A DNA stretch of 64,000 nucleotides from Oscillospiraceae bacterium (lineage in GTDB: Bacteria > Bacillota > Clostridia > Oscillospirales > UBA929). A model generated the notes under the pieces. The model saw only the letters and a list, made by a program, of their open reading frames with translations. It was not told the origin of the DNA and did no database searches. Positions 317-29,670 of this stretch are shown here, one piece after another. The translations under genes and the position numbers were made by a program. Every line of letters starts with the position of its first letter. Position 1 is the stretch's first letter. The stretch is taken from the NCBI GenBank assembly GCA_009782385.1, contig WRJE01000004.1, positions 1,549 to 65,548 of the forward strand, read 5' to 3'.

Positions 317-320
317 GAAA

Positions 321-13040: not shown

Positions 13041-13745
13041 ATGTACAAAGTCGCCATTTGCGAAGATGAGCAAGTTTTTTCCAACGCGCAGGAGAAAGCC
13101 TGCCGCTCTGTTTTGGAGAAATTGAATATAGAGCATCAAATAGAATTGTACGCGAGCGGTGAGGAGTTTCTCTCTGCCGGACAGAAAGAACGGTATGACC
13201 TTATCCTGCTGGACATCATCATGGGCGGCATGAGCGGTATGGAACTGGCAAAAGTCATCCGCGAATCAGACCGTGAAGCCGTTATCATCTTTATAACGTC
13301 AAGCCGGGAATATGTCTTTGAGGGTTACGATGTAAACGCGCTCCACTATCTGATAAAGCCTGTAGATGTTAACATCTTGGAGCGGCTGATTCGGGAATCT
13401 TATACCGAGAAATTCCAAGACAGCTTCTTTGTATTCAAGACGGGCGGGTTGAATCAGCGCACAGCGGTCAAAGACATCGTATCGCTGGAAACGGTCGGTC
13501 GGAAGGTGGAGGTTACGCTAAAAGACGGTACGCTGCAATATTCCGGCAAGCTGACAGAGTTACTGGAAAAGCTGCCAAAGGGACGTTTTGTCCGCTGTCA
13601 TCAGGCGTTTGCCGTCAACATTGAGAACATAAGGGAGCTTACGCGATTTGAGGCTATAACCCATAACGGGAAAAAGATACCGATTAGCCGTACATTTCAA
13701 AGCGATATAAAGAAAGCGTTTCTAAGACAGATGGGAGGGAGATAA
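13041..13745 (+). CDS. LytTR-family response regulator (AgrA/ComE-like)
   Basis: MYKVAICEDE...LILLDIIMGGMSG receiver domain plus a C-terminal LytTR domain (...FVRCHQAFAVNIENI). AGGGAGGGG RBS. The upstream part of ORF 12885 is rejected. Confidence 0.9.
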   Translation: MYKVAICEDEQVFSNAQEKACRSVLEKLNIEHQIELYASGEEFLSAGQKERYDLILLDIIMGGMSGMELAKVIRESDREAVIIFITSSREYVFEGYDVNALHYLIKPVDVNILERLIRESYTEKFQDSFFVFKTGGLNQRTAVKDIVSLETVGRKVEVTLKDGTLQYSGKLTELLEKLPKGRFVRCHQAFAVNIENIRELTRFEAITHNGKKIPISRTFQSDIKKAFLRQMGGR

Positions 13746-13749
13746 AAAG

Positions 13750-15225
13750 ATGAAAAAATTCATGCCCCCATTGTGGTATATTCTGATTGTGTCCGGCGTT
13801 TTTGCCGCGCTTGTCTATTTTTGCATGATACGCTGGCATATACAACTGTCAAACGGCATACCTCTTGACCCGAATCTCTTCCAAGTCACGAATATGGGTG
13901 AAAAAGCTCCGGGTATTATGCCTTATGTTTTGGAATGGAATGCGTTTAACATAGCGGGATTATTGATTTGCTTGGTCTTGGGGAGTATATGCCTGATTCT
14001 GGGCGTTATCCGCGCTTTGAACAAACTGAGCTGCAAGCATATTTTTTTAATCGCGCTTTTCTCTTTGCTCTTCTCCATTGATAAGCTGTCCGTGTCTGAT
14101 TTTGCGCTCAGAACGTTAAGTGCGGAATTTTTGTTCTATGTTACAAGAGTTACATATATATTCTATCCCATCGCGTTGTTTACGCACTTATACTATTATT
14201 TGCGGCACTCCGCGCGAAAGTGGATGTCTCCGCTTATTATTATGCTCGTTGTGTATGCGGTTGCCTCATGGGTGATGTATCTCGGGTTTGGGCTGCCGCT
14301 CAGTGTGCCTAATATGTTCTATACATATGTATCTGCGGCTTGCTCGGTCATATTCTTGGGCGTTGGTTCATTTGCTGCCGAATCAAAAGCCGCCGCGCGT
14401 TATATCCGCACCATTTCCGCCGCGTGGATTTGTTGGTTAGTATATATGGTTGTTAAAAGCGCGGCAGGTATCCAAACCGTTTGGGCTAACGAGTATATGG
14501 TTGCGATTACCGTCAGTGTTGCGTTCATGTTATCTTATGTGCTGCTTGTAAATACCCTCGAATTGGAAAATTACAAGACAGAAGCTAGATTGTTGGAACT
14601 TAGAAACGGGCTGCTCGTGGAAAACTATCAAACCCTCGAAGCCTATATGTCTCAAATCGCGCAGATGAAGCATGAAATGCGCCATCATCTGCTCGCTATG
14701 AAAATCTTGACGGATGACTGCAAACACGAACAGCTCGCCGCGTATCTGACTGATATTCAAGACAGTTATACTGAAGCTCCGGAAATTGTAATTTGCGGTC
14801 ATCGTATGATACAGTCGGTACTCGGACACGCGGCTCAACGAGCCGGACAAATGGGTTTTGAGATTAGTTTTGACATCTCCCCTCTGCCGCCTCTTACCAT
14901 AACCGATACGGATACCGTCAGCCTTCTAATGAACCTGATAAATAACGCTTTGGAGAGCTGTGAAAAAATGCAATCCCCGGAAAAAAGATGGATTACCGTT
15001 GCGGCTAAACCCCGCGCGCCGTATCTTTATATTTCTGTAAAAAACAGTTCCGGCGGCGATGTGAGGGTGAAAAACGGTCGGTATATCAGCACAAAGGAAG
15101 ACCCGTTTTTTCACGGTCACGGATTGACCGTTGTACACGGCATTGCGAAAAAGTATAACGGATTTGCCGAGTTTGAGCATACGGAAGATTCGTTTTGCGC
15201 GGAGGTCGCGCTGCGTGTGATATAA
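13750..15225 (+). CDS. Polytopic sensor histidine kinase, HPK10 (AgrC/ComD-like) type
   Basis: Multi-pass hydrophobic N-terminal half. H-box QMKHEMRHHLLAM, N-box LLMNLINNALESC, G-box HGHGLTVVHGIAKKY. Confidence 0.85.
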   Translation: MKKFMPPLWYILIVSGVFAALVYFCMIRWHIQLSNGIPLDPNLFQVTNMGEKAPGIMPYVLEWNAFNIAGLLICLVLGSICLILGVIRALNKLSCKHIFLIALFSLLFSIDKLSVSDFALRTLSAEFLFYVTRVTYIFYPIALFTHLYYYLRHSARKWMSPLIIMLVVYAVASWVMYLGFGLPLSVPNMFYTYVSAACSVIFLGVGSFAAESKAAARYIRTISAAWICWLVYMVVKSAAGIQTVWANEYMVAITVSVAFMLSYVLLVNTLELENYKTEARLLELRNGLLVENYQTLEAYMSQIAQMKHEMRHHLLAMKILTDDCKHEQLAAYLTDIQDSYTEAPEIVICGHRMIQSVLGHAAQRAGQMGFEISFDISPLPPLTITDTDTVSLLMNLINNALESCEKMQSPEKRWITVAAKPRAPYLYISVKNSSGGDVRVKNGRYISTKEDPFFHGHGLTVVHGIAKKYNGFAEFEHTEDSFCAEVALRVI

Positions 15226-15244: not shown

Positions 15245-15377
15245 TGTAGGGTCGGGCTTCCATGCCCGACCGTTTTGTATGTTTATCGACAATCCGGCGG
15301 CGCGTCCGGGAAGCCGCGCCCTACTATGCCCGACCGTTTTGTATGTATATCGGTAGGGAACGCCGCCATCGGCGTTC
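15245..15377. repeat. Cluster of three REP-like units (forward, reverse, forward) with an internal 27-bp direct repeat
   Basis: GTAGGGTCGGGCttccatGCCCGACC (15245-15270). GGCGCG...CGCGCCCTAC (15296-15323). GTAGGGAACGCCGccatCGGCGTTCC (15352-15377). atgcccgaccgttttgtatgt occurs twice. Confidence 0.85.
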
Positions 15378-15500: not shown

Positions 15501-17510
15501 ATGAAAAACAAGAAAATCATATCCCTGCTCCTCGCTCTTATATTCGCGTTGGGAATTATCCCCGCGTTTGCCCCTCCCGCAACGGCGGCGAGCGGCGGCA
15601 CAACCATTGACATGGCGGATACCAACCCGCCGTCTAGCGGCACAGGTTGGACATATGCAAGCAATTCCTACACCATACTAGACGGCGCGAATGTGATTGT
15701 CACCGGAAGCAACGGCGGAAGCCAACGGTATGTTGCGGTCGCGATGGGCGCAACGGTAACCGTCACGCTGGACAATGCGTCCATTATTAATACAAGTTCT
15801 TACTTTTGCCCATTTGCGTCACTGAATAATACAAATGTAACGCTTAATCTCAAAGGAAATAACATCCTCACGGCGGGGCTTGCCGTTCCGGGACTATGGG
15901 CCGCGGAAGGTTCTTCGCTTACCATTAACGGTCCGGGCAGTCTGACCGCAACCGGCGGCGATGGCGGCGCGGGCATAGGCGCGGACGAGGGATTTGCCAA
16001 CGGTAATATAACCATAAACAGCGGCACGGTGGAAGCCATAGCGGGCGGCTCGGGCAACTCGGCGGCTATCGGCAGAGGTCACGATGATGGTGGTGGTGTC
16101 TACATCTTCAACGAAATGGGCGTGATTAACATCGTCAGCGGATTTAACTATTTTACAAACACGACAAACAGCGAGGACGGCGCAGCAGCTTCCGATTCGT
16201 TTGTTTGGAGTGATACATACAGATATATTAAAATAGTACCTCACAATCCGGTAATAAGCGTCAATACACAGCCCGCCGCCGCGACAAACCTCACGGCGGG
16301 AAGCATATCCGGCTCATTGTCCGTGACGGCAAGCGCAACGCTTGGCGCGGAATTGAGTTATCAGTGGTACTCTAACACAAGCGCAAGCAATACGGGCGGC
16401 ACGGCTGTCAGCGGCGCAACGGGCGCGAGCTTTACGATACCGACAGCCTTAACGGAGGGAACTTATTATTACTACTGTGTAGTGAGCGGATTGGTAAGCG
16501 CAACGGGCGGCGCGGCTTCCGTTGCGTCTAACACGGCAACGGTGACTGTTGAGGAAAGCTCCGAACCGGAGCCTTCTCCAGAACCGGAATCCGAACCTAG
16601 CCCCGAACCGGAACCCGAACCCGAACCGGGCGATGATTCTCAAAACAGCGGCACAATCAGCCTAACCGATTCCTCCGCGCCGCATATCAACCTCGCGGCG
16701 GAAACAATATCTTTACCGTTCACCGTTGCGGCATACAGTATAGACGGCGGCAAGAAATGGAAAAAAGGCGAACTGCCCACAGACACCAAATGGTACAAAC
16801 TGTTCGATAACAAAAAAGGCTTGGAACTGTGGGTAACAAACGCTTGGAACGATAAAGACATAAAAGAAGATAAAAAGGTCGTGGAAAAGAAAGGCGTTCC
16901 ATCCGGCGCGACTATTATCAAATTCCCCAAAATAGACGGACGACCGAAAGCAAATCAAGAAAAAGTCGCGCCTTGGTACGGAACGGGAACTGAAACATCA
17001 TTTGTACTGAGTAAAAAGGGTAAAACCTTCTCTACTCCAACGAGTGTTTATGAGTACGCTGAAACTTCAGATGGGAAAACCGCAAGCGGCGCGTGGGCAA
17101 TCTTCAAAGACGGCTTGTCCATACCCGATTCCGGAAAAGTCACATGGCTGTTCCGTTCACCGCCAACAGTAGAAGGAAGTAAATATACACCCGGAAGCAA
17201 AGCCTTTAAGTTAAACGCCGTGGCATATGTCAAAACACCGAACTACAAAGCTCCAACCGAAGCGAAAGCGGGTAAACCAACTCTGCTAAAACTGAAAAAG
17301 GGTGACTTCTGCTTGGTGATGATTGACGGGGAAGTTAAGATATTCGGGTCGGCGACTGCCAAAACGGACATAAAGATTGTAGGGGGAACTCCGGGGGCGA
17401 ACGAGATACCTAGCGGCACTTCGGTAAGCATTTGGAAAGCGGCGACAGGTAAGAAACCGCGTTCATCGGCACAGGAACTGACTATGCCGACAATAACGCC
17501 GCCGACATAG
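15501..17510 (+). CDS. Secreted paralog P1: beta-helix-like Gly-rich N-domain, Ig-like segment, Glu/Pro linker, conserved C-terminal module
   Basis: Signal peptide MKNKKIISLLLALIFALGIIPAFAPPATA. Repeated G-x-ITINSGTV/GGAGIG segments. EPEPSPEPESEPSPEPEPEPEP linker. AGGAGGA RBS at the ATG at 15501. Confidence 0.85.
   Translation: MKNKKIISLLLALIFALGIIPAFAPPATAASGGTTIDMADTNPPSSGTGWTYASNSYTILDGANVIVTGSNGGSQRYVAVAMGATVTVTLDNASIINTSSYFCPFASLNNTNVTLNLKGNNILTAGLAVPGLWAAEGSSLTINGPGSLTATGGDGGAGIGADEGFANGNITINSGTVEAIAGGSGNSAAIGRGHDDGGGVYIFNEMGVINIVSGFNYFTNTTNSEDGAAASDSFVWSDTYRYIKIVPHNPVISVNTQPAAATNLTAGSISGSLSVTASATLGAELSYQWYSNTSASNTGGTAVSGATGASFTIPTALTEGTYYYYCVVSGLVSATGGAASVASNTATVTVEESSEPEPSPEPESEPSPEPEPEPEPGDDSQNSGTISLTDSSAPHINLAAETISLPFTVAAYSIDGGKKWKKGELPTDTKWYKLFDNKKGLELWVTNAWNDKDIKEDKKVVEKKGVPSGATIIKFPKIDGRPKANQEKVAPWYGTGTETSFVLSKKGKTFSTPTSVYEYAETSDGKTASGAWAIFKDGLSIPDSGKVTWLFRSPPTVEGSKYTPGSKAFKLNAVAYVKTPNYKAPTEAKAGKPTLLKLKKGDFCLVMIDGEVKIFGSATAKTDIKIVGGTPGANEIPSGTSVSIWKAATGKKPRSSAQELTMPTITPPT
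16674..17507 (+). other. Conserved C-terminal module, copy in P1 (278 aa)
   Basis: SAPHINLAAET...VAAYSIDGGKKWKKGELP...KFPKIDGRPKANQEKVAPWY...LFRSPP...LKKGDF...WKAATGKKP. Alignable to 25450-26235 and 28003-28824. Confidence 0.85.
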
Positions 17511-17579
17511 GTGTTGACAACGCTCGCAGCCCTCTTTATAATGGAAATAGGAATATTTTCTTATAGAGGGGGATGCTTT

Positions 17580-18653
17580 ATGTTATCATTAAGGCAAGAC
17601 GCAAAGTACGCGCTTATCATTCCCACCAGTATCGGTGTGCGTATTCAGCCGCTTAACGGCGTGCCTGTGCATACAAGCGATACTTTTTCCATGCACGTTA
17701 CAAGCGCGGAATCCAATGTCGCGAGCGTTGCCTCGTACCTTGGACTTCCGGTCAAGATTTTGACCGCGTTTGTAAAAGACAGCCCGATATCGGCACTCAT
17801 AAAGAGTAATCTCCGCAGCCGAGGAATGGATTATGAGGGCAGGGATGTTGAGCAGGGCGGTCCGTGGGGTTACAGGCATCAGTTTAATATAGCCGACAGC
17901 GGATTCGGCGTGCGCGGGCCGCGCGTACATAACGACCGTGCGGGTGAAGTAGGGCGTACTCTGAATGTGCGCGATTTTGACCTAGAGCGCATATTCGGGA
18001 GCGAGGGCGCGCAAATTCTTCATCTGTCGGGGCTTATTGCCGCGCTGTCGCCTGAAACGGGCGAGTTTTGCATAGAGCTTGCCAAAGCGGCAAAGAAGCA
18101 CGGCACGTTGATATCGTTCGACTTGAACCATCGCGCTTCATTTTGGAAAAACCGCGAGGGTGAGCTTGGCGAGTTGTTCGGGCGAATAGCGTCCTTGACA
18201 GATATACTTATCGGGAATGAAGAAGATTTTCAGTTGGCTCTCGGTATATCCGGGCCGGAAACGGGCGCGGGAATCGCCGGAAAAACCGACAGCTTTAAGG
18301 CGATGATCGGCGAAGTGAAGAAAGCGTATCCGGACACTTCGGTCTTCGCCAATACTTTGCGGCAAGTGATAAGCGCGAATCGGCATTTATGGGGTGCGCT
18401 CATGCTTGAGGGCGATAACTGGCACACCGCCAGAGCGCGTGAGATAGATGTTCTTGACCGCATAGGCGGCGGCGACGGATTTGTGGGCGGAATGCTGTAC
18501 GGTATTCTTAAAGGCTGGGCACCCGAGAAATGGATTCAGTTCGGCTGGGCTTCGGGTGCGCTTGCGACAACTTATTCCACCGACTACAACCAACCCGCCG
18601 ATGAGGAGCAAATCTGGAGCATATGGCACGGTAACGCAAGAGTTAGGAGATAA
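17580..18653 (+). CDS. PfkB-family sugar kinase (2-dehydro-3-deoxygluconokinase-like)
   Basis: C-terminal DRIGGGDGFVGGMLYG motif typical of ribokinase/PfkB kinases. Start at the ATG at 17580. Confidence 0.8.
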   Translation: MLSLRQDAKYALIIPTSIGVRIQPLNGVPVHTSDTFSMHVTSAESNVASVASYLGLPVKILTAFVKDSPISALIKSNLRSRGMDYEGRDVEQGGPWGYRHQFNIADSGFGVRGPRVHNDRAGEVGRTLNVRDFDLERIFGSEGAQILHLSGLIAALSPETGEFCIELAKAAKKHGTLISFDLNHRASFWKNREGELGELFGRIASLTDILIGNEEDFQLALGISGPETGAGIAGKTDSFKAMIGEVKKAYPDTSVFANTLRQVISANRHLWGALMLEGDNWHTARAREIDVLDRIGGGDGFVGGMLYGILKGWAPEKWIQFGWASGALATTYSTDYNQPADEEQIWSIWHGNARVRR

Positions 18654-18655
18654 GC

Positions 18656-20095
18656 ATGAACAAATCGGACATCGGAATGATAGGGCTTGCCGTTATGGGC
18701 AAGAATCTCGCTATGAATATGGCGGGAAAAGGCTTTGCGGTCAGCGCGTTTGACATTGACGCGGAGAGAGTAAAAGACGTTGACGGAGAAAAAAATATCA
18801 CAGGCGCGTTAACACTTGAGGAGTTCGTGTCGCAGCTGTCGTCTCCGCGCCGTGTTATGATGATGATAAGGGCGGGAAAGCCCGTGGATGAAGTGATAGA
18901 AAAACTGATTCCGCTGCTCTCTCCCGGCGATATTATCATTGATGGCGGCAACTCCCACTTCCCCGACACCATACGGCGTATGCGCTATACCGAGCTGAAA
19001 GGCATACTGTATATCGGCGCGGGTGTCTCGGGCGGAGAGGAGGGCGCGTTGCATGGACCGTCTATAATGCCGGGCGGCTCGGCGGCGGCGTGGAAAGATG
19101 TAAAACCGATTTTTCAGGCAATCGCGGCAAAAGCCCCGGACAGCAGCCCGTGCTGTGAATGGGTCGGCGGCGATGGTGCGGGTCATTTCGTCAAAATGGT
19201 ACACAACGGGATTGAATACGGCGATATGCAGCTCATTTGCGAGGCTTATCACCTTATGAGAGACTTATTGGGCATGAGCGCGTCTGAAATGCACGAGGTT
19301 TTCAAGGGTTGGAACGAACGCGAGCTAAACAGCTACCTGATAGAGATTACACGCGATATACTTGCGGTCAACGATGAAGACAATACACCGTTAGTCGATA
19401 AAATCCTTGACACAGCGGGGCAAAAAGGCACGGGCAAGTGGACTGCAATATCCGCGCTTGACGAAGGCGTACCGCTAACATTGATTGGCGAGGCGGTATT
19501 CTCGCGCTGTCTGTCGGCAATAAAGGTCGAGCGTGTTGAGGCTTCAAAAATCATAAAAGGAACACGGTCAAAGTTCAGCGGCGACAGGCAAGAGTTCATA
19601 AAAGACTTGGGAAACGCTCTGTACGCGGCAAAATTAGTGTCTTACGCTCAGGGGTTCGCGCTTCTGCGTCAGGCGGCGGAGACACATAACTGGGATTTGA
19701 ACTACGGGAACATCGCCCTTTTATGGCGCGGCGGGTGCATTATACGCTCCGCGTTTTTAGGCAAAATAAAAGAAGCGTTCGATAATAATCCAACGCTTAC
19801 AAATCTTCTGCTTGACCCGTTCTTCCGGCAGGTGATGGAAAAATCTCAGCAGGGTTTCCGCAATATCTGCTCTTCTGCGATGCTGAACGGAGTTCCCGCG
19901 CCGGCGTTCGCTTCCGCGCTGAGTTATTTCGATGGCTACCGCTGTCCGTATCTGCCCGCGAATCTTCTGCAAGCCCAACGCGATTACTTCGGGGCGCATA
20001 CCTATGAGCGAACCGACCGACCGCGCGGTGAATATTTCCATACAAACTGGACGGGACGCGGCGGCAGTACGGCATCTACCACATATAACGCCTAG
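18656..20095 (+). CDS. gnd: 6-phosphogluconate dehydrogenase, decarboxylating
   Basis: IGMIGLAVMGKNLAMN, GAGHFVKMVHNGIEYGDMQLI and QAQRDYFGAHTYER are signatures of this family. Confidence 0.95.
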   Translation: MNKSDIGMIGLAVMGKNLAMNMAGKGFAVSAFDIDAERVKDVDGEKNITGALTLEEFVSQLSSPRRVMMMIRAGKPVDEVIEKLIPLLSPGDIIIDGGNSHFPDTIRRMRYTELKGILYIGAGVSGGEEGALHGPSIMPGGSAAAWKDVKPIFQAIAAKAPDSSPCCEWVGGDGAGHFVKMVHNGIEYGDMQLICEAYHLMRDLLGMSASEMHEVFKGWNERELNSYLIEITRDILAVNDEDNTPLVDKILDTAGQKGTGKWTAISALDEGVPLTLIGEAVFSRCLSAIKVERVEASKIIKGTRSKFSGDRQEFIKDLGNALYAAKLVSYAQGFALLRQAAETHNWDLNYGNIALLWRGGCIIRSAFLGKIKEAFDNNPTLTNLLLDPFFRQVMEKSQQGFRNICSSAMLNGVPAPAFASALSYFDGYRCPYLPANLLQAQRDYFGAHTYERTDRPRGEYFHTNWTGRGGSTASTTYNA

Positions 20096-21336
20096 CCTGT
20101 TTGAATCTTACCGCAGCTTAACCGTCCTTCGGGGCATTTGCCGTCCGCAAAGCAGCTCGCTCCGAATTTCGCGAATAATTTTTCGTCTTCCGCTCGCAAT
20201 TTATCAAGCATATCAACAGCGATTTTTCTGATTTCCCATTGCGCTCTCGTACAGCAGCGCAGCTTAAAGAACAAGTCCATCTCTCTGGCGTTCATGGAAG
20301 TTATAACATCCAGAGTGTTTCCGCTCAGCGCGAGATACGCTTCATCGCTGAAACCGTGTTCTCTGAGTTTATGTATAGCTTCCGCGTTTTTGGCAAACGC
20401 GGCACGGTAACGGTTTTCCAAAGAGCCGTTTTCGGCAACCGATGGCGGTATTAGATATCTGTTGGGGTCGGCGTGCCATATCGGCGGGATGATAATTGAT
20501 TGCAGTCTGTGTCTGACTAAATGTGTCAGCCCCGACAGGGAAATATTTCTGATGATATATGCCGCGCTGATAAACTCTAGCAATCTCGGGTTAGTGTTGG
20601 GGAAATTTTGAACACCCCGCGTGCTGTCCGTATATGAAATAAGTTCAACATTTGAATTTGTAACCGCCGACTCGGGCGAAATTTTAGGGAAACACGGTTT
20701 TTCAACGGGACGATGCTCGCATCGTCCTATGTCTTTAAGTATAAACGGGAATAACTCTTCTAACTGTTCGCGGAGCTGATTTCCCAAATCGGTCAGTTCC
20801 CCGTGCATCGCGCCGCGCCCCTCGAAGATTTCTTTCAGCATATGCTGTAACTCCCGCGCGTTAACGGTGCAGTAAAAATTACTGTGAAACGAGTACGGCA
20901 ATAAAAACCGTGCGTCCTCTTTCGGGATTCCGTTGTTTACAAAGTAGTTATATTCACCGAATAAAAACTCAACGTGACTGCGGTAAAGCCGCTCCGCTTC
21001 ATCGGACATTTTTTCCGGTGTGTAGTATCCCATTTTGCCGAAGTCAACATACCTTCTGGATTTTACTGTATATGACGCAAGGCGGAACTCTATAAAGAAC
21101 TGTTCAACTAAAACGGAAACATTTGAAAATGCAATCGTAAAAACGGCGTGTTCGAGAAATGACGTATGACCTGAACGCAGCACTTTTTCTATCAGTTTTG
21201 AGTTGCCCGCGTTATTCTCCGTGTCTGAAAAAATGCACATTGCATCGCCTTGGGTTGTAGAGATACGCGCCGCGCCGGCGCATATCCGTGTGTTTTCCTG
21301 ATTTACCGATATTATCTTTGCTGTACCTTGCGGCAT
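20092..21336 (-). CDS. Two-domain ThyX-like (flavin-dependent thymidylate synthase family) protein with a Cys-rich tail
   Basis: N-domain: RSGHTSFLEHAVFT...ASYTVKSRRY...DARFLLPYSF...NARELQHML (RHR degenerate). C-domain: LVRHRLQS...NAREMDLFFKLRCCTRAQWEIR. Tail: CFADGKCPEGRLSCG. 414 aa, against roughly 220-250 for usual ThyX. Confidence 0.75.
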   Translation of the reverse strand: MPQGTAKIISVNQENTRICAGAARISTTQGDAMCIFSDTENNAGNSKLIEKVLRSGHTSFLEHAVFTIAFSNVSVLVEQFFIEFRLASYTVKSRRYVDFGKMGYYTPEKMSDEAERLYRSHVEFLFGEYNYFVNNGIPKEDARFLLPYSFHSNFYCTVNARELQHMLKEIFEGRGAMHGELTDLGNQLREQLEELFPFILKDIGRCEHRPVEKPCFPKISPESAVTNSNVELISYTDSTRGVQNFPNTNPRLLEFISAAYIIRNISLSGLTHLVRHRLQSIIIPPIWHADPNRYLIPPSVAENGSLENRYRAAFAKNAEAIHKLREHGFSDEAYLALSGNTLDVITSMNAREMDLFFKLRCCTRAQWEIRKIAVDMLDKLRAEDEKLFAKFGASCFADGKCPEGRLSCGKIQTG

Positions 21337-21384
21337 ATTCTTTACTCCTTACTGTTTGTATAATTTAGGCCGCCCGCCAACTTC

Positions 21385-23832
21385 TTACGGATAATCCAAC
21401 AGCCCAAGCATTTTTGCTTTTATCACCGCCTCGCTCGCGCTATGGACACCCAAACGCCTATACAGAAGCCGCACATGAGTTTTTACGGTGTCATACCCTA
21501 CTCCGGTCGCGTCGGCAATCTCGCCGTAAGACATTTTTTTGTTTAGATACGGCAGCATGGCTCGCTGTTGCGCCGATAGCATGGTCGCTTCAATTTTTGA
21601 AGAACCGCAATTCTTATGAATTTTATCAATCAGCTTGTCAAGCCAAGCGGCAAGCGAATCATCGGCGTTCCCGCTCAGTTCCCATAATAGCGGAAGCAAT
21701 TCCATGCCTTCGCTCACAAACAACTGCGTGAAGCCGTAAGGCATAGCAATAGAGACGGCATTTCCAAGATGAACCGTTGCCTCCTCTTTTTCGCCGCCGC
21801 GCATAAGCGCGACAGACACAAGAATCCCGCTCTCGATTATATCCAAAGGACGGCAATAATCAGACGCTAAAGTTTGCAGTCGTTTCCCGAACGCAACGGC
21901 GGCACTGTAATCTTTCAAAGCGATATATGAGCGCAGCGTGGCGAAATGTCCGGCAAGCTGATAGAACGGCAGCTGTTCCAGACGGCAGGCATAAAACTCA
22001 AGCCATTCCCGCGCCGCCGCGCCGGATTCCGCGCCGCCCCCGCCGATTGCCATTCTCGTTTGCAACGCTTTGAAGTTCGGGCGCAGAAATTGCGCCCTGT
22101 TTTCGATGTATGCCCTGACTTCATCCATGATGTCGCCCGCTTCGTCTAACGCCCCCATCGCGTGCAGAACCGCCGCCAAAATCATACGCGCCGAAAACCA
22201 TGTCTCGGGGTGCGCCTTTTCCTCGCAGGAGAAAACCCCGGTTATGGCGTGACGCGCCGCTTTAAGCAGTTCGCCGCGCTCGTAGTATATCCCGGCAATC
22301 AGCGATTGTTCCATAACCTCGTAATCCTTGCCGATCATTACGCCGAACGTGTTTCTGTATAACGCCAAATCTTCCTCTTTCAATTCGTAATTTTCCGAAT
22401 AATCACGCATTGAGCGGTGGAAAAACGGCAGATTGTGCGTAATTGTATTGGTGGTCGCCGATTCGGTTTCCCGCGCCCCCATCGACCGCATCATAACGGC
22501 AAGCATCTTGGCGTACTCAAGCATCGGAACACGCGGGTCAAGACTGCCCAAAAACCCCACCGTTTCTATAATATCGGGGTATTTTTCGGCAATTTCGGGC
22601 AGTTTTTCCTGCAAAACGTCTATCCAGTAGGTAAAATCCTGCATATCGCCGCCCCAGAATGACGCACAGCAGCACTCGACCGTCAGAAACGGGTTTTCCG
22701 CAATAAACGACATGGGCATATACATAACATTCCGGCTTGTGAAATGGTAGCTTGCCTCTATGGATATGTTTTCCGTCTCCTCGTTGTAAACGGTGATTGC
22801 CCGCTCACAGCGGATAATCCCCTCGTGATCCAGATTTTTGAAAAAATACAGTATGCTTTGAAAATAGTTCCCGCGCCCGAAATACCATTCGGCGGTTACA
22901 TTGTTGAGCTTCCGTATTTCATCGCCGCTCAGATTATTATCAAGGCGTTCCAATAAAAACTCGCGGAATATGTCGTGGAAGCGGTAAACGCCGCCGTCAC
23001 ACGACAAAAAAGCGTTGCCCATTTTCATCAGCCGCTCCAACAGCCCGATACCGTCCGTCTGCTCTGTCAGCCGTTCCGCAAGTTCCGGCGTAATTTCGTT
23101 TGGTACAGCCAAACGCAGGAGCGAGATTTTTGTGTCGCGTGTCCACAGTCCCCAAACACGCTTTTCCAGATACTCTGTCAGTGTATGCGATGTCTCGTCA
23201 TATTTCTTGCCGGACAGCAGCAGCGACAGGTATATCGCCCAGCCGCCCGTCGTTTTTATCAAACTTCCGATGTCTTCCGGCGTAAGTCTACCGTCCGGTA
23301 ATTTTATTTCTTTAACCGTAAAGAGAAGGTCGTTCTGTGTCAAAACCTCAAACCGCCCTGTCTCCGTTAAGAGTTCCGAAGGCTCGGAGCGGCTTATCAG
23401 GCACAGGCAGACATAATAGGGCAGGCGGGCGGTAATCAGCGGCAGATTGCCGATAATTTCCTCGTTATCGAGCATATGAAGGTCGTCGATAAGCAAATAA
23501 ACGCGGCTGTGACGTTTGGACAGCAGGTTTATTATATCAAGCAGCCTGTCAAAGCTCACGTTCGCCTGCGGCAGGAGATGCGCCTTATCCATGAGTATCA
23601 GAAGCGCGCGCGCCAGCTTTTTGTAAAACACAAACGGGGCGTTATCGGCCTCTGTCACGGTTATGCTCTCCGTTTTTTTACGCATATAGGATATCCACTG
23701 CCCGGCGGCAACGGTCTTGCCGTAACCGCCCGGGGCGGTTATATAAATGTTCTTCTTCGCCGACATTGTTTTCAGCCTTTGAACCAAGTGTTCGCGGAAT
23801 ATTACATCATCCTTGATATTTACCGTATCCAT
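21385..23832 (-). CDS. MalT-like STAND ATPase / LuxR-family transcriptional regulator
   Basis: Walker A ITAPGGYGKTVAA, Walker B LLIDDLH, a long helical (TPR-like) middle region, and a C-terminal LuxR HTH (LSAQQRAMLPYL...YGEIADATGVGYDTVKTHVRLLYRRLGV). Confidence 0.85.
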   Translation of the reverse strand: MDTVNIKDDVIFREHLVQRLKTMSAKKNIYITAPGGYGKTVAAGQWISYMRKKTESITVTEADNAPFVFYKKLARALLILMDKAHLLPQANVSFDRLLDIINLLSKRHSRVYLLIDDLHMLDNEEIIGNLPLITARLPYYVCLCLISRSEPSELLTETGRFEVLTQNDLLFTVKEIKLPDGRLTPEDIGSLIKTTGGWAIYLSLLLSGKKYDETSHTLTEYLEKRVWGLWTRDTKISLLRLAVPNEITPELAERLTEQTDGIGLLERLMKMGNAFLSCDGGVYRFHDIFREFLLERLDNNLSGDEIRKLNNVTAEWYFGRGNYFQSILYFFKNLDHEGIIRCERAITVYNEETENISIEASYHFTSRNVMYMPMSFIAENPFLTVECCCASFWGGDMQDFTYWIDVLQEKLPEIAEKYPDIIETVGFLGSLDPRVPMLEYAKMLAVMMRSMGARETESATTNTITHNLPFFHRSMRDYSENYELKEEDLALYRNTFGVMIGKDYEVMEQSLIAGIYYERGELLKAARHAITGVFSCEEKAHPETWFSARMILAAVLHAMGALDEAGDIMDEVRAYIENRAQFLRPNFKALQTRMAIGGGGAESGAAAREWLEFYACRLEQLPFYQLAGHFATLRSYIALKDYSAAVAFGKRLQTLASDYCRPLDIIESGILVSVALMRGGEKEEATVHLGNAVSIAMPYGFTQLFVSEGMELLPLLWELSGNADDSLAAWLDKLIDKIHKNCGSSKIEATMLSAQQRAMLPYLNKKMSYGEIADATGVGYDTVKTHVRLLYRRLGVHSASEAVIKAKMLGLLDYP

Positions 23833-23890
23833 ACATAAACCTCCATATTATTTTTTAACGGCGTACCGGGAAATCGGCGGGCGGACGAAC

Positions 23891-23935
23891 GGGGATGGCG
23901 CGTTATACAACCCACCCGGGGTGAGAGGTGAACCT
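23891..23935 (+). repeat. Copy 1 of a ~45-bp direct repeat containing GGGGATG / GGGGTGAG boxes
   Basis: ggggatggcgcgttatacaacccacccggggtgagaggtgaacc, 60-100 bp upstream of the regulator start. Confidence 0.85.
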
Positions 23936-24000
23936 GTTGCAAATGACATGACCCATACCTTATAATAAAGCAGTAACATCACTCCTTATTCTTCTCTTTA

Positions 24001-24053
24001 GAATCCGTGTCCAATCATTTTGAAAAATTTTTTTCATGATTGGATACAGATTC
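24001..24053. promoter_or_regulatory. Inverted repeat with 18-bp arms and a 17-bp AT spacer in the divergent intergenic region
   Basis: gaatccgtgtccaatcat (24001-24018) against atgattggatacagattc (24036-24053). 16 of 18 positions are complementary. Spacer: tttgaaaaatttttttc. Confidence 0.6.
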
Positions 24054-24093
24054 CATTTTAGCATACTTATATGTAATCGGTCAAGCCCCTACC

Positions 24094-24139
24094 GGGGATG
24101 GCGCGTTATGTACAACACACCCGGGGTGAGAGTTGTACC
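24094..24139 (+). repeat. Copy 2 of the ~45-bp direct repeat
   Basis: ggggatggcgcgttatgtacaacacacccggggtgagagttgtacc, 150-195 bp upstream of P2. One indel and a few substitutions relative to copy 1. Confidence 0.85.
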
Positions 24140-24288
24140 GCTCAACTTTACAGGTTAATGTTTCGATAGTTTACACAGAGGGGGGTGTTTGGAATATCAT
24201 ATAAAAATGGGCTTTTTATATGCGGCTTTGGCGGCAAGGACGACCGCCGGAGAAACACCGATACCATTACTTTTAAGGAGGAATTTTT

Positions 24289-26238
24289 ATGAAAACTTTT
24301 AAGCGAACTTTGTTTGTCTTTTTATGCGCGGCTGTGTTTGCCGCAGTTATCGGCGCGGGCGTACCCGCCCTCGCGGACGATTACGTTTCGTTCACCATAG
24401 AAGAGGGATATTTGGGCGATATTACCATCTACCTCAAGATGGAAGGTTTTGACGATGCTAACGATGAGGGCAGAGCCTTCTATTACGAAGGGGGCTACGC
24501 TGATTACAACTGGGATCCACGACATAACGTAGGCGATACTGTTCCCGCAAATTTTGCCTACTTGAAGAAAATAACAGCCGAAACAACGAGCATTAAAGGC
24601 GATTCCCGCTCGGATAGCAGCGAACTATCTTGGGAGAATGGTGTCTATAGTCAGACCCCCTTTGGTTCCGGTGTAAGGTATCGGGTTTACGAACTTGACG
24701 AAAACCGTAAAGTTCTTAAAATGTGGGAGCTAATCGGTAACGACATGAATCCGCAAGTGAAAATACCCCCTAAAACTCCCACATTGACTACAGCGAATAG
24801 GCAAGGGGGTGTTCTACTTCGTGCAGATTATCTCACTGTTACATCGAACAGATATTATTTTGAACTCAAAGCTGCGCCGTATACGCCCGCGTATAACGTA
24901 GGCGATACCGCTGTCAAAAGCAACCTTACACAGCTTAAGCATGAGGATTCCTATGAAGAGAAGTACGGCGACCCCGGGACAGATATGACGATGTATATGT
25001 ATGAAATCGCGCCTGATAATAAAGTTCTCGCGCGGATTGAATTGACGGCGAAGACGCAGGCGGATTTTACGCCGTATGACGCTGTTTACAAGTGCGGCGA
25101 TAAAATAACGAGCGTACACGCGGCTGTAGCGAACCCGGAATCGGTTATTGCCGCAATCAACAAGAAGATTAAAGAATTGGCGGATGCCGGAGAATTAGGA
25201 GTACATACCGGTGTCTATTTCGAGCGGCAGAATCCAAGTTACGTTCCCGGCAGTACGGGTTCAACTAAAGACTTTGAGGCTTTTCTGCCGGATAAGTGGA
25301 TAGCGGGACGCTTCTATTTGAAAACAGGCACAGTTACAGTCTCAAACGTCACCCCCGGTTACAACGAGCCCCAAATCAAGTTTACAGCCGACGCTCCCTA
25401 TAGCGGCGCACCCGCAAACTCCATCATAGTAAACACCACCACATCCGACGGCGCGACAATCAACCTAACCACTGAGACAATCGACCTCGCGGGGTTCACA
25501 GTGGCGGCATACAGCATAGACGGCGGTACGAAGTGGAAAAAAGGGCCTCTGCCCGCCGGAGAAAAATTCAAGAAGATGCTCAACAAGCCGATGACATTGT
25601 GGCTGTCCGACACTTGGAAAGACAAGGCCGTTAAAGCCGACCCCGACAAAAATATCGAGGCCGTTGCCAAAGGCGTTCCGGATAACGCTAGGATTGCCAA
25701 GTTCCCCGCTCTTGAAAAACGACCCAAGAAGAACGAGGAAAAGCTGAAACCCTATTACGGCGACACACATTGGGTGCTTGCACAGAAGGACAGCGCGGAA
25801 GCGGTGTTCAGCGGCTATGAATACGCCCCGTCATCCAACGGGAAAACCCCGACCGGAAACTGGGAAGCTGTGCCGTCAAGCGGATTCGGAATTGTGTCGG
25901 GCGCGACTAAACTTACATACCTGTTCCGTACCGCGCCGAACAGCACGACCCCTGCCAGCGCACCGTTCAAAATAAAACCCGCCAACTTCGGCAAAGCACC
26001 CGCTTACAAGATTAAGGACACAAAAGACCCCGCAGATAAAACTATAATAATCAAAGTCATCGCCTTTAAGAAGGGCGACCAATACGCCGTTGGAAGCGAG
26101 GGGTACACCCCTGCTTTGGAAGATAAACTGACGCTCACTGTCGCCGAATTAGCGGAGAGGGGCGCGAATCTGAACGTCAGAAAGGCCGCAACGGGCAAGA
26201 AACCACCATCAGACGCGCAGAGCATAGCACTCAAATAA
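24289..26238 (+). CDS. Secreted paralog P2: internally duplicated N-terminal region plus the conserved C-terminal module
   Basis: Signal peptide MKTFKRTLFVFLCAAVFAAVIGAGVPALA. Internal repeat (NVGDT...YRVYELDENRKVLKMWEL / NVGDT...MYMYEIAPDNKVLARIEL). AAGGAGGA RBS. Confidence 0.85.
   Translation: MKTFKRTLFVFLCAAVFAAVIGAGVPALADDYVSFTIEEGYLGDITIYLKMEGFDDANDEGRAFYYEGGYADYNWDPRHNVGDTVPANFAYLKKITAETTSIKGDSRSDSSELSWENGVYSQTPFGSGVRYRVYELDENRKVLKMWELIGNDMNPQVKIPPKTPTLTTANRQGGVLLRADYLTVTSNRYYFELKAAPYTPAYNVGDTAVKSNLTQLKHEDSYEEKYGDPGTDMTMYMYEIAPDNKVLARIELTAKTQADFTPYDAVYKCGDKITSVHAAVANPESVIAAINKKIKELADAGELGVHTGVYFERQNPSYVPGSTGSTKDFEAFLPDKWIAGRFYLKTGTVTVSNVTPGYNEPQIKFTADAPYSGAPANSIIVNTTTSDGATINLTTETIDLAGFTVAAYSIDGGTKWKKGPLPAGEKFKKMLNKPMTLWLSDTWKDKAVKADPDKNIEAVAKGVPDNARIAKFPALEKRPKKNEEKLKPYYGDTHWVLAQKDSAEAVFSGYEYAPSSNGKTPTGNWEAVPSSGFGIVSGATKLTYLFRTAPNSTTPASAPFKIKPANFGKAPAYKIKDTKDPADKTIIIKVIAFKKGDQYAVGSEGYTPALEDKLTLTVAELAERGANLNVRKAATGKKPPSDAQSIALK
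25450..26235 (+). other. Conserved C-terminal module, copy in P2 (262 aa)
   Basis: GATINLTTET...VAAYSIDGGTKWKKGPLP...KFPALEKRPKKNEEKLKPYY...LFRTAP...FKKGDQ...RKAATGKKP. Confidence 0.85.
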
Positions 26239-26255
26239 AACAAAGGCAAGGAAAT

Positions 26256-26391
26256 GTAGGGACGAACTGCGTTCGTCCGCGGGCGGCCAATGACCGCCCC
26301 TACGGCATACCATGCGTTTTCGCGGGCGGACGAACGGCCGCCCCTACGACATACCGTGCGTTTTCGCGGGCGGACGAACGGCCGCCCCTAC
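26256..26391. repeat. REP-like cluster between P2 and P3 (one forward unit, three reverse units including a 44-bp tandem duplication)
   Basis: GTAGGGACGAACtgcGTTCGTCC (26256-26278). GGGCGGccaatgaCCGCCCCTAC (26281-26303). Two tandem units ...cgttttcgcGGGCGGacgaacggCCGCCCCTAC (26304-26347 and 26348-26391). Confidence 0.85.
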
Positions 26392-26463
26392 ACGGGAAAA
26401 TAAAAAAACGGAGCGGCAAGGATGACCGCCCGGAAGACAATTATTATCAAGGAGGAAATTACA

Positions 26464-29400
26464 ATGAAAAAACGATCAATTCTAAGCATGGTGCTTGTAC
26501 TCACGATGATAATTTCCATGTTCACATTCGGCGGGACAATGGCGGTTGCGGCGGAGTATGTGCCGGGTGTGATTACTATCACAAAACAGCCGCCGTCATC
26601 AATAACTGTTACGCAGGGGCAAATAGACACCCAACTTACGATTGACGCGACATCCACCGGAAAACAAAACGCTTATATGGAAGATTACAAAGAACCTATT
26701 CGCGCGGAATGGAAGCAGACCTCTGCAAGCGGAGAACCCTCCGGGACTGACAGCGTTTTGGGACAAGGAATTGGACAGTCGTCTACTCTCTACTTCCTGC
26801 CGTCAACATTTAAGATTCCGACAGGCTTAGCTCCCGGCGTACATTACTTCTATGCTACCGTTATATCTGGTAGACGTACCAGCGGCGATACCGGTACAGG
26901 CTCGCCCAGCGTCACTTCCGATGTTACAAAAGTAATCGTTTTACCAAGCGCGTCTACCCAATCAACGGGTTTGAATACAATAAAAGGTTTATACATGATA
27001 CGAGACAAAACATCCATGGAAGCATTTGATGTAGGCGCGTGGAACAACATAAGCGAGACTATGCTGTTTAACGCGGGTTTTATAGATGAACCGACACTGG
27101 CATCAGAAAAAATTGATGCCGTAATGAATGCGTTAAGAGACGCTCATCCAAATACTGACGGTTCAGAAGCGGCTTCATTGCCGTCTTTCAGCATACAGGA
27201 AATGCAAAAAATTATCTACGGTGCGCTCGGCGGTAAGTATAGGTGGACGGAAACCAATACTCCTGTAGACCCAACGGGAACAAAGGGCGCGTGGACGGTA
27301 AAATTTCCCGAAGATATTGCTACTTCGGATAGAAATTCTTATCCTCCCTTTATTACATTATATCCGGGTGAATCTTATGAAGTAAGATACGATTCACCTG
27401 CGGGCAGTGGAAGCGATAATAGGCAGCCTGCCGCACAGGCGGCTGAAGGCTTCTACAACGCGGTTATGGCATCCGCCGCGATAACGGCAAACTATGATAT
27501 AACCTACTCAGGCGTTACGCTTACTTTCACGCAAAAAGTGCCGAGCAGAGATTTTGCGGATACCGTCAATTCGATTGACAAAAGTAAAATATTACAGAGT
27601 TACTACTTTGGCTCCACATATGTATTGATACCTCAAACCACCTATTTTTCAAATGGTATAACTGCCGGTGCCGGACCCTCTTATGAACCAGAAGTCACAA
27701 GAGTAACTCAACCAATCCCCGTGACACCCGGAATCGCGGGCGTTTACAGGCTTACTATCCAAGCTCCTCTCAGCAAAGGCGAGACGATTAAGATTGGCGG
27801 CGATACATATACATCGGCGGGCGATACGGACGATGCCGCCGCGATAGGCGCAATGACTTTTGATAACTTTACTGTAAGCGTCAGCGGTAATGAAGTTATA
27901 TTCACACAGAAAAATCCAAGCACCTCAAGTAATACCTTAGGCGGCAGTTCGGGCGGCGGAGCAACGGACGGCGACGCGAACGGCACAATCAGTAAGGGTG
28001 ACGCACCCGCTCCTCATATCAACCTCACAGCCGAGACAGTCAACGCCGGGTATGAAGTAGCGGCATACAGCATTGACGGCGGCAAGAAGTGGAAAAAAGG
28101 ACCTCTGCCCGAAGATAAGAAACTGGCGGGACTGTTCAACAAGGGTATGACCCTATGGCTAACAGATAAATATAACGACAAAGACGTAAAAGAAGAGAAA
28201 ACAGTAGTGGCTAAAAAAGGCGTTGCGGACGGCGCGAATGTCGTCAAGTTCCCCAAGATAGAAAAACGCCCCAAAGCCAACGCGGAAAAACTCGCGCCGT
28301 TCTATTACCACGCGACACCCTCGAGCTGGTTCATGACCAAGAAAGGCGCGAAAACGTACTCCGAACCCACAGGCAAGTACGAATGGGCGGATACGGAAGA
28401 CGGTAAAGCCGCGAGCAGCGCGTGGCAGTCACTTCCCGATGTTGGCTGGACAATCGAGGATACAGGCACAAAGAAGACAGTCCTGTTCCGTTCCGCGCCC
28501 GTGGCGGACGAGGGCAAATATATACCCGGAAGCAAGATATTCAAAGTAAAGCCCGCCGCATACGGCAAAGCTCCCAATTATAAGATTAAATCGGTTAAAA
28601 ACCCGGACAATAAAGACACCAAACTCAATGTCTTACCGTTTAAGAAAGGCGACCAGTACTTAGTTGTGGGCGGTATCGGCGGCAGACCGGAAGCGTGGAT
28701 TGAGCCGTTGACAGCCAAGTTGGATATCCAAGTCGGCGAATTGGGCCCGGAGGGTACAAAAGTACACATCAGGAAAGGCGCGACAGGCAAGAAGCCCGCA
28801 TCGGCGATTCAGGAGATAGCTCTGCCCGAGGGCATTGCCAAAATCGAGTATGTAACGGTTACTGTTGCGAGCGATGCGGACGGGGTTAAGTATACATATT
28901 CGCAGTCTTCGCTCGCCAATGCCGTACCCGGAAAGGGTATCAACTTGCCGAAAGACGGATTCAGCCTTATAGTCGGCGCGACCATACACATCCACGCCGA
29001 TTGGGACGATAGTGGCGTTAATAAAGCACAGCAGATAAGCTATAAGGCGATAGGAGCAGATGTTGACGATGGTAAGGCTCTGGCATTCAACGATTGGAAA
29101 ATCGGTGCGCCGAAAATCGCCGCGAAATCTCAACCGAAAGTGACCGAGAAAGAGATTATAATTACAGGCAGCGGGTTTAAGACCGGAACGACCGACATTC
29201 TTTTGCAAAACTTCACAATCGAAGGCAGCGCGGCGGGCAAGGTAACGGGCATAGACGCGACTGCAACAGAGGTTAAGTTCACAACGACAACCGCTTTGGC
29301 ATCGGGCGACAAGATAACGATTACGGCAAAGCCCGCCGCATATAGCACAGCACCCATGCTTAACAGTAACACGGTGACGTTCACGGTTGACGTTGACGAG

Positions 29401-29670
29401 GCGGCGTTTGACACGGCAATCGCAAAACTGACGGCAGTAGAAAACAAACTCGGCGAGATAGCCGCACTCGCGGCTTGGGATGCCGCAGGTGGTCCGGCTA
29501 AACGTAGTCTGGTAGTCGATGCCGTTGCGGCTATAGTTGGAAGTGCGGTTACGGTTTCATCACCTGCGACAACTCCGACCGACACTTCCCATACGGTGAC
29601 TATTACATCCAAAACTAAACCCGAGCTATACTCAAAAGATGTTACCGTTACTTATACAATCGGCTCGTAG
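26464..29670 (+). CDS. Secreted paralog P3: large N-terminal region, conserved module, and an extra ~280-aa C-terminal extension
   Basis: Signal peptide MKKRSILSMVLVLTMIISMF...MAVAAE. AAGGAGGA RBS before the ATG at 26464. The stop TAG lies inside the GTAG of a REP unit. Confidence 0.85.
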   Translation: MKKRSILSMVLVLTMIISMFTFGGTMAVAAEYVPGVITITKQPPSSITVTQGQIDTQLTIDATSTGKQNAYMEDYKEPIRAEWKQTSASGEPSGTDSVLGQGIGQSSTLYFLPSTFKIPTGLAPGVHYFYATVISGRRTSGDTGTGSPSVTSDVTKVIVLPSASTQSTGLNTIKGLYMIRDKTSMEAFDVGAWNNISETMLFNAGFIDEPTLASEKIDAVMNALRDAHPNTDGSEAASLPSFSIQEMQKIIYGALGGKYRWTETNTPVDPTGTKGAWTVKFPEDIATSDRNSYPPFITLYPGESYEVRYDSPAGSGSDNRQPAAQAAEGFYNAVMASAAITANYDITYSGVTLTFTQKVPSRDFADTVNSIDKSKILQSYYFGSTYVLIPQTTYFSNGITAGAGPSYEPEVTRVTQPIPVTPGIAGVYRLTIQAPLSKGETIKIGGDTYTSAGDTDDAAAIGAMTFDNFTVSVSGNEVIFTQKNPSTSSNTLGGSSGGGATDGDANGTISKGDAPAPHINLTAETVNAGYEVAAYSIDGGKKWKKGPLPEDKKLAGLFNKGMTLWLTDKYNDKDVKEEKTVVAKKGVADGANVVKFPKIEKRPKANAEKLAPFYYHATPSSWFMTKKGAKTYSEPTGKYEWADTEDGKAASSAWQSLPDVGWTIEDTGTKKTVLFRSAPVADEGKYIPGSKIFKVKPAAYGKAPNYKIKSVKNPDNKDTKLNVLPFKKGDQYLVVGGIGGRPEAWIEPLTAKLDIQVGELGPEGTKVHIRKGATGKKPASAIQEIALPEGIAKIEYVTVTVASDADGVKYTYSQSSLANAVPGKGINLPKDGFSLIVGATIHIHADWDDSGVNKAQQISYKAIGADVDDGKALAFNDWKIGAPKIAAKSQPKVTEKEIIITGSGFKTGTTDILLQNFTIEGSAAGKVTGIDATATEVKFTTTTALASGDKITITAKPAAYSTAPMLNSNTVTFTVDVDEAAFDTAIAKLTAVENKLGEIAALAAWDAAGGPAKRSLVVDAVAAIVGSAVTVSSPATTPTDTSHTVTITSKTKPELYSKDVTVTYTIGS
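28003..28824 (+). other. Conserved module, copy in P3 (274 aa, internal rather than terminal)
   Basis: APAPHINLTAET...VAAYSIDGGKKWKKGPLP...KFPKIEKRPKANAEKLAPFY...LFRSAP...FKKGDQ...RKGATGKKP. Confidence 0.85.

Follow-up and report, generated by a model that had tools for sequence, protein, structure and literature searches.

Three genes in a 64,000-nucleotide stretch of DNA from an uncultured Oscillospiraceae gut bacterium (contig WRJE01000004.1; the whole stretch is hereafter the window), which we call P1, P2 and P3, encode proteins with predicted Sec signal peptides and a segment in common. This shared segment is a lineage-restricted domain module of approximately 250–275 residues without prior annotation, and we estimate at roughly one in two the probability that it is a new non-covalent cell-envelope anchor, analogous rather than homologous to the SLH, CWB2 and GW modules. 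We favour this reading because it accounts together for Sec export, a constant cationic module that can lie at either end of the protein, variable cargo, the existence of paralogs and the lack of any other anchor. A role in binding the wall or a partner is plausible, judging from the charge of the module, the architecture of the proteins and the absence of other anchors.

Three proteins share one module

P1 (15501-17510, FWG36_01270, MCL1819266.1), P2 (24289-26238, FWG36_01295, MCL1819271.1) and P3 (26464-29670, FWG36_01300, MCL1819272.1) are open reading frames (ORFs) of 669, 649 and 1068 amino acids (aa), respectively, all on the + strand. They lie where an earlier reading of the window, made from its letters alone (the sequence-only reading), had placed them, and they are identical to proteins of an Oscillospiraceae metagenome-assembled genome (MAG), each annotated as hypothetical. 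The Sec signal peptides proposed for them were assigned by eye from the sequence, each N-terminus having a basic n-region, a hydrophobic core and an AxA-type site; in P1 the n-region/h-region/AxA rule places the predicted peptide at residues 1-29 (15501-15587, + strand; …PATA/AS). Behind it P1 carries a Gly/Ser-rich head, an immunoglobulin (Ig)-like segment, a Pro/Glu-rich linker and, at the C-terminus, the module. P2 consists of a signal peptide, an acidic head that matches no family and a C-terminal module, and P3 of a signal peptide, a Thr/Gly/Ser-rich head, an internal module and a C-terminal extension. This extension (28825-29667, + strand) is 281 aa long, in line with the roughly 280 residues first described, and has an isoelectric point (pI) of 5.1; when 51 post-module tails were compared, it showed homology solely to the tail of P0026.

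Over about 270 residues the three segments can be aligned with 41-56% identity and a mean column identity of 66% (pairwise tblastn, E values of 6e-40 to 1e-73), and every motif block quoted in the sequence-only reading is visible in the three-way alignment. With limits set by a hidden Markov model (HMM), the proposed extent of the P2 module was retained (25450-26235, aa 388-649; pI 9.56, net charge +13) and those of the other two shifted to 16674-17486 in P1 (aa 392-662; pI 9.62, net charge +16) and 28006-28824 in P3 (aa 515-787; pI 9.51, net charge +14), all on the + strand. No fourth copy was found in the window by tblastn with each module. The similarity reported at the DNA level was also reproduced, the 23-mer GCGGCATACAGYATWGACGGCGG being found exactly three times (16728, 25504 and 28060) against 0 expected. 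Overall nucleotide identity between the modules is only 52-60%, so the copies are old paralogs and not recent duplicates.

A large family absent from curated resources

The claim that the module was novel withstood comparison with Pfam, NCBIfam, PHROGs and the PDB sequences, where no curated family matches it. Specifically, no match at E<=1 was obtained in Pfam (2025 copy) or NCBIfam (2026), the PDB sequence and profile searches were empty save for a marginal profile match to an anhydrosialidase, and a literature search found no description of the family. PF26918, precomputed on the relative P0004, was considered as a Pfam model of the module and rejected, being in fact Ig_Eae, a weak match that lies on the Big_2 head of that protein.

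An exhaustive profile search yielded 684 clusters at 50% identity, 558 of them with E<=1e-10 and 268 with E<=1e-30. Word-indexed homolog searches returned 9 matches with one alignment (A1) and 6 with a diverse 26-sequence alignment (A5), and given the 684 clusters from the exhaustive HMM search we conclude that a word index is unsuited to this family. The named members come from Oscillospiraceae MAGs, together with one S8 peptidase from Defluviitaleaceae, and their source names cover the heads only (for example 'C1A family cysteine protease', 'InlB B-repeat-containing' and 'lectin like domain-containing'). The traceable loci derive from a gut dataset of Termes hospes, a higher termite (Th196, Ga0099364; PMC7024585), in which Ruminococcaceae and Defluviitaleaceae are the dominant Clostridia (PMC7024585). 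The MAG to which the window belongs encodes at least five module paralogs (FWG36_01270, 01295, 01300, 01685 and 10665) and, going by accession range, probably two more, for a total of seven. On L011 (Ga0099364_10081870), a short termite-gut contig, two module-encoding stretches adjoin (1660-2472 and 2792-3427), an arrangement that resembles the tandem of P2 and P3.

A constant module on swapped heads

HMM matches in 151 representatives of the family revealed one module per protein. It is C-terminal, with no more than 30 aa after it, in 93 of the 151, starts within the first 110 residues in 27 and is internal in the remainder; where it is N-terminal or internal the head sits at the opposite end, and in some of these proteins the module directly follows the signal peptide. 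A crude test for a Sec signal was passed by 103 of the 131 representatives that start with Met. The heads, as recognised by Pfam, include Peptidase_C1 with Lectin_like, BspA-type LRR_5, Flg_new, aBig_2, Transglut_core and WG repeats, as well as RCC1, Glug, He_PIG, S8, M64, CBM26 and phospholipase C. Such diversity of heads is the usual cargo of surface-anchor modules. The most direct comparison is that of P1 with P0013 from the same MAG, whose signal peptides are 77% and whose modules are 95% identical, with unrelated heads (17%) that are beta-helix-like in P1 and a transglutaminase in P0013. The module thus behaves as a cassette, with the heads being swapped, and the family survey bears out the description of P1, P2 and P3 as members of a modular Sec-secreted family with a constant module and highly variable heads.

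Some of the finer claims about the heads stood only in part. The heads had been regarded as impossible to align with each other, but the Ig-like segment of P1 (aa 251-357; 16251-16571, + strand) matches aa 36-166 of P3 (BLASTP E=8e-8, 27% identity). The beta-helix-like and Ig-like domains of P1 correspond to sub-threshold Pfam matches, in the latter case to Ig_3, and the internal duplication proposed for P2 is weakly supported, its local score of 52 (z=4.7) being equalled by at least one of 300 shuffles.

As had been noted for the module, no known anchoring motif is present in P1, P2 or P3, which match no anchor family at E<=1 in Pfam or NCBIfam and have neither an LPXTG motif nor a C-terminal transmembrane segment. 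The same applies to the family at large: a scan by regular expression and hydrophobicity found a C-terminal transmembrane-like segment in 0 of the 151 representatives, and the one LPXTG-like match among them lacks a transmembrane segment and looks spurious. Our Pfam scan of 80 relatives comprised 20 representatives analysed singly and a 60-member census listing the 25 commonest families. Among the matches listed for these relatives, proteins with N-terminal or internal modules included, there was no SLH, CWB2, LysM, GW or CW_binding. CWB1, WXL, ChW, SPOR and PGB1/2 were likewise missing from P1-P3 at E<=1 and from the matches listed for the relatives, and Gram_pos_anchor (PF00746) had no Pfam match in P1-P3 or among those listed matches.

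Predicted fold and conserved charge

An AlphaFold2 model of the P2 copy, with a predicted local distance difference test score (pLDDT) of 90.3 and a predicted template-modelling score (pTM) of 0.76, is nearly all beta-strand, two short helices apart. The strands can be grouped into three sets, each spanning about 85 residues, which indicate that the module consists of three small sub-domains, D1, D2 and D3; their limits, inferred from the strand groupings, are approximate (in P2, 25450-25713, 25714-25983 and 25984-26235, respectively, + strand). D1 modelled alone gave a pLDDT of 86.3. When the whole module was compared by Foldseek, the PDB returned two-domain Ig structures (Fab light chains; E ~3e-4, template-modelling score (TM) ~0.16) and BFVD returned tandem FN3 phage proteins (E down to 6e-5, TM<=0.36), the matches overall having TM values of 0.13-0.36 and identities of 8-18%. 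This suggests, at the level of fold class, that D2 and D3 are generic Ig/FN3-like beta-sandwiches, and the low TM values would fit a tandem pair (D2-D3) whose mutual orientation differs. Pfam has no FN3, Ig or Big model that matches the module, and D1 alone gave no significant PDB structure match by Foldseek (best E=1.9).

D1 is highly conserved and contains an Asp-box-like hairpin of the form S-x-D-G-G-x-K-W, seen across the family as S23-x-D-G26-G27-x-x-W30, in which the Ser is conserved in 98%, the Gly residues in 92-98% and the Trp in 100% of sequences, and the marginal anhydrosialidase match, which falls in an Asp-box region, is consistent with this hairpin. The basic linker between D1 and D2 (KRPK..N.EKL) is also strongly conserved, with R92 present in 98% and P93 in 89%. 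Across 124 diverse modules, 19 positions are K or R in at least 75% of sequences and 8 are aromatic, with only 2 acidic; the positive charge of the module is therefore positionally conserved and not merely compositional, and the charge is distributed as +2 in D1, +5 in D2 and +6 in D3. The modules of the representatives have a median pI of 9.64 (94% above 9) and a net charge of +13, and their heads a median pI of 4.64 (98% below 6).

Two variations on the D1-D2-D3 plan were seen. In 42 of the 151 representatives (~28%; P0024, P0035, P0036, P0039 and 38 others) the module is immediately followed by a fourth conserved domain, some 95 aa long, with the signature …LTCAxGKI…YExYD..K.KWGG.PK…IRLKTT.KGTSGNAAS…; it has no copy in the window and no Pfam match in the members scanned singly. 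In addition, a few members duplicate the first ~50 residues of D1.

Comparison with known anchoring and sorting domains

We compared the module with a catalogue of recognised anchors taken from PMC5817068, which gives GW/SH3-8, CWB2 and SLH as established cases of basic, non-covalent attachment to wall polymers. These three are also the functionally closest systems. One of them is SLH (PF00395), a constant three-unit module found at either end of unrelated Sec-secreted proteins of Clostridia and Bacilli, with many paralogs per genome that have different heads; SLH triplets hold their proteins non-covalently on the secondary wall polymer (PMC5817068). The SLH units, however, are helical, of about 55 aa and marked by an ITRAE signature, the helical fold being established (PDB 3PYW, as cited in PMC5817068), whereas our module has about 265 aa and is predicted to be nearly all beta-strand. 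The SLH profile gave no match in P1-P3 (E<=1), in the 20 representatives scanned singly or among the 25 families listed by the census, and as a positive control it did match the window protein at 645-1958.

CWB2 (PF04122), the module of the Clostridioides difficile Cwp family, also resembles ours in that three tandem units make up one anchor for varied heads; there are approximately 29 paralogs, with proteases and adhesins as heads, and the module, N- or C-terminal, binds an anionic wall polysaccharide (PMC5817068). It differs in that its profile does not match and in that the sub-domains of our module are not detectably repeats of one another, D1 being distinct from D2 and D3. Placement at either end is a feature that both SLH and CWB2 share with the module and that a terminal sorting signal would not have. 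In GW modules (SH3-8, PF13457; Listeria InlB and Ami), which bind electrostatically to (lipo)teichoic acids (PMC5817068), a strongly basic C-terminal region retains an acidic functional head. GW modules, unlike ours, are SH3-like barrels with a Gly-Trp signature and variable copy number, and there is no match in sequence or fold class. A similar basic retention of the head is found in the anchoring regions of Lactobacillus S-layer proteins. LPXTG proteins (PF00746) end in an LPXTG motif, a hydrophobic segment and a basic tail, an arrangement not found in the 151 representatives.

Three further domain types were compared with the module. Tandem FN3/Ig arrays would resemble D2-D3 at fold class only, and D1 has no structural match. 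The BNR/Asp-box repeat (PF02012, S-x-D-x-G-x-T-W) shares the hairpin motif, which is nearly invariant in D1, but D1 has a single hairpin in a small domain and no beta-propeller, and the Pfam BNR model stayed below threshold on P1-P3. Finally, many unrelated secreted proteins end in the type IX C-terminal domain (Por_Secre_tail), which is a beta-sandwich; this domain is Bacteroidota-specific, about 80 aa long, strictly C-terminal and removed after export, whereas our module occurs in Clostridia hosts, spans about 265 aa, is not always terminal and has no Pfam match.

A proposed envelope anchor and its alternatives

If the module is an anchor, the proteins would be exported by Sec and the cationic module would then attach, without covalent linkage, to an anionic part of the envelope of the cell that made it; the candidate ligands are teichoic-acid-like polymers, secondary cell-wall polymers and surface-layer partners. 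The acidic variable head, be it a protease, a leucine-rich repeat (LRR) or Ig adhesin, a transglutaminase or another domain, would thereby be kept on the cell surface, and P1, P2 and P3 would belong to a set of at least five proteins that this Oscillospiraceae bacterium displays on its surface. We hold more tentatively the fuller version of this proposal, namely that D1-D2-D3 is an unrecognised non-covalent anchoring system of Clostridia and a counterpart of SLH and CWB2, that D1 is a new fold recognising a specific wall polymer, and that the system defines, and makes predictable, the surface proteome of the dominant uncultured termite-gut Oscillospiraceae and Defluviitaleaceae.

Several points weigh against an anchor. 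We infer the binding, the identity of the ligand and the retention of module proteins on the cell, and Ig/FN3-like sandwiches serve more commonly as stalks or adhesive units than as wall anchors. The genome that encodes the module also encodes a GDSL hydrolase with an SLH domain (645-1958, - strand); as it already uses SLH anchoring, a second anchoring system is not required, and the module would be just that, a second system parallel to the classical SLH one. The high pI equally suits anionic external substrates. Comparison of related loci (five genome loci and four short metagenome loci, too few for co-occurrence statistics) revealed no conserved neighbour gene in the nine, such as one for a CsaB-like polymer-modifying enzyme. 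Lastly, the census lists the 25 commonest families, so that an anchor that accompanies the module only rarely could have escaped it.

The strongest competitor, which we nonetheless regard as unlikely, is that the module guides freely secreted proteins to a polyanionic substrate outside the cell, in the manner of a carbohydrate-binding module (CBM) or an adhesin, and not to the producer's wall; dietary fibre or humus particles, the host gut lining and other microbes are the candidate substrates. Like many glycan-binding modules, this one is cationic and has conserved aromatic and basic positions, the traceable samples come from termite gut, the D1 hairpin is of a type common in glycan-active proteins, and occasional heads are enzymes (CBM26, GH17-like, S8 and C1 proteases). 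Yet the heads are mainly adhesin-type repeats (LRR_5, Flg_new, Big, He_PIG and RCC1) and proteases, not polysaccharide-degrading enzymes, and an adhesive head would need a second attachment to the cell, for which no other anchor is present. We rate somewhat lower the idea that the module binds no ligand and is a structural unit, either a rigid beta-sandwich stalk or a self-associating unit of an S-layer-like lattice. This would suit the resemblance of D2-D3 to tandem Ig/FN3 arrays (the Fab light chains of the PDB and the FN3 phage proteins of BFVD), the extra D1 or fourth-domain units in some members and the use of one module by many paralogs, as in S-layer-associated proteins. A stalk, however, needs an anchor beyond it, and the module is the extreme C-terminus in 93 of the 151 representatives; moreover stalk domains usually vary in copy number and are poorly conserved, whereas the module is single-copy with a fixed D1-D2-D3 order and invariant S, G, W and R residues.

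Two other explanations fare worse. A recognition domain for dedicated secretion, sorting or processing, comparable to the type IX beta-sandwich C-terminal domain, would also be mostly C-terminal, partly beta-sandwich and attached to many unrelated cargo proteins, and the strongly conserved basic linker between D1 and D2, with its near-invariant R92 and P93, could then be a processing site. This is highly improbable, as these proteins carry Sec signal peptides in any case, a substantial minority of them have the module at the N-terminus or inside the chain, no conserved machinery gene lies nearby in the nine loci and ~265 aa far exceeds the size of known sorting domains. The sequence-only reading had itself raised the possibility that the paralogs are prophage structural proteins; phage-derived tail fibres or decoration proteins would be examples, and the BFVD fold matches to phage FN3 tail and structural proteins, with E down to 6e-5, point the same way. 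Those matches are generic tandem FN3, with 9-14% identity and low TM, PHROGs holds no relevant match, 2.9 million viral contigs contain no gene for a relative, housekeeping genes and regulators (6-phosphogluconate dehydrogenase, ThyX, a PfkB kinase, ParB and regulators) lie around P1, P2 and P3, and all three proteins have Sec signal peptides, so that a phage origin is effectively refuted. A non-covalent envelope anchor is the reading that we retain.

Regulators and genomic context

The sequence-only reading had named two neighbouring regulators as likely controllers of P1, P2 and P3. For the MalT-like/LuxR-type regulator (21385-23832, - strand; TPR_MalT and GerE helix-turn-helix by Pfam), which is divergent from P2, there is some support for a local link to P2 and possibly P3, but not for a family-wide one. 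A 68%-identical homolog lies divergently upstream of a P2-like gene in the locus L007 (MAG contig WRJK01000022.1), and both spacers keep the element CACCCGGGGTGAGA (23913-23926 in the window, + strand, upstream of P2) abutting a TTGCAA-N18-TATAAT promoter; in the window a promoter scan places this promoter-like site at 23937-23942 (TTGCAA) and 23961-23966 (TATAAT), + strand. The link could reach P3 because no + strand terminator is listed between P2 and P3, and the limit to its range comes from the other related loci, the MalT-like gene being seen at none of the others among the nine compared.

The spacer between the MalT-like gene and P2 also holds two copies (23891-23935 and 24094-24140) of a direct repeat of about 45 nt, GGGGATGGCGCGTTAT..ACAAC..CACCCGGGGTGAGAG. 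A second copy of CACCCGGGGTGAGA (24118-24131, + strand) lies inside this repeat, the 3' part of which is conserved in the orthologous L007 spacer. The repeat begins with GGGGATGG, which resembles the Escherichia coli MalT box, GGGGA(T/G)GAGG, a likeness to be treated as a lead only. The L007 homolog (6676-9702) matches the regulator of the window over its first ~550 residues only; its C-terminus is an unrelated stretch of about 450 aa, with weak LRR and dockerin matches, that takes the place of the TPR and GerE helix-turn-helix regions and could reflect domain replacement, a frameshift or misassembly.

For the second proposed controller, the LytTR system, no support was found. A terminator-like hairpin, which is also a GTAGGG unit of the repetitive extragenic palindrome (REP)-like type, stands at 15250-15271 (+ strand) between the LytTR/kinase pair (13041-15225) and P1 and argues against their co-transcription; no direct repeats typical of LytTR sites occur upstream of P1; and the pair is present at none of the nine related loci.

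A 15-mer, GCGGGCGGACGAACG, flanks both P2 and P3 (5 copies in the window against 0.39 expected) and was ruled out as a regulator operator, as it belongs to the REP-like palindromes found between genes throughout the window. Such palindromes have GTAGGG ahead of a GC-rich hairpin, as in GTAGGGTCGGGCTTCCATGCCCGACC and GTAGGGACGAAC..GTTCGTCC, and they cluster in the P1, P2 and P3 spacers and are also present elsewhere in the window (12566, 15246, 15324, 15353, 26256, 26303, 26347, 26391, 29667, 29736, 29780, 32784, 33667, 39811, 60252, 60363 and 61564). The 3' flanks of P2 and P3 (26239-26410 and 29671-29800) are homologous and share an identical stretch of about 55 nt, gtgcgttttcgcgggcggacgaacggccgcccctacacgggaaaataaaaaaacg, and between the two genes a 44-nt unit is tandemly duplicated (26289-26376). 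Either an ancestral duplication carried the flank along or REP clusters were inserted at both sites.

The genes around P1, P2 and P3 form a chromosomal housekeeping context with nothing phage-like: a LytTR/GHKL two-component pair, a PfkB kinase, 6-phosphogluconate dehydrogenase, ThyX, the MalT-like/LuxR regulator, an extracytoplasmic function sigma/anti-sigma pair, ParB and CarB. The two Thy1 stretches of the 414-aa ThyX-like protein (20092-21336, - strand) point to a flavin-dependent thymidylate synthase that is tandem-duplicated or fused, as opposed to the usual single-domain form. Positions 1-6800 have a GC content of 0.40-0.41, compared with ~0.50 elsewhere, and hold a large serine recombinase (2171-3775) and an IS110-family transposase (5546-6808); this region is probably a mobile-element insertion. 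At 59647-61996 (- strand) three long ORFs (59647-60486, 60360-61298 and 61250-61996) overlap mutually and contain REP-like GTAGGG palindromes, and some of them may not be real genes.

Implications

A shared anchor combined with variable heads is a well-known principle, and recognising SLH, CWB2, LPXTG or GW is what reveals the outward-facing proteins of the Gram-positive surface proteome; the domain family described here is new to the resources searched. Several hundred clusters, among them proteases, BspA-like LRR adhesins and transglutaminases, carry the module unnamed in annotation resources. Its hosts belong to the families that dominate the termite-gut Clostridia, and the annotations of these proteins read 'hypothetical protein' or name the head only. 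Whether the module binds the envelope or an external substrate, it deserves a Pfam/InterPro entry. If it binds external substrates, it would be a large family of targeting modules in an ecosystem that degrades lignocellulose and humus. If it is an anchor, it would be a new wall-polymer recognition domain, with a D1 that has no solved relative, and a possible display scaffold for engineering, and it would allow surface display in these uncultured lineages to be predicted in one step.

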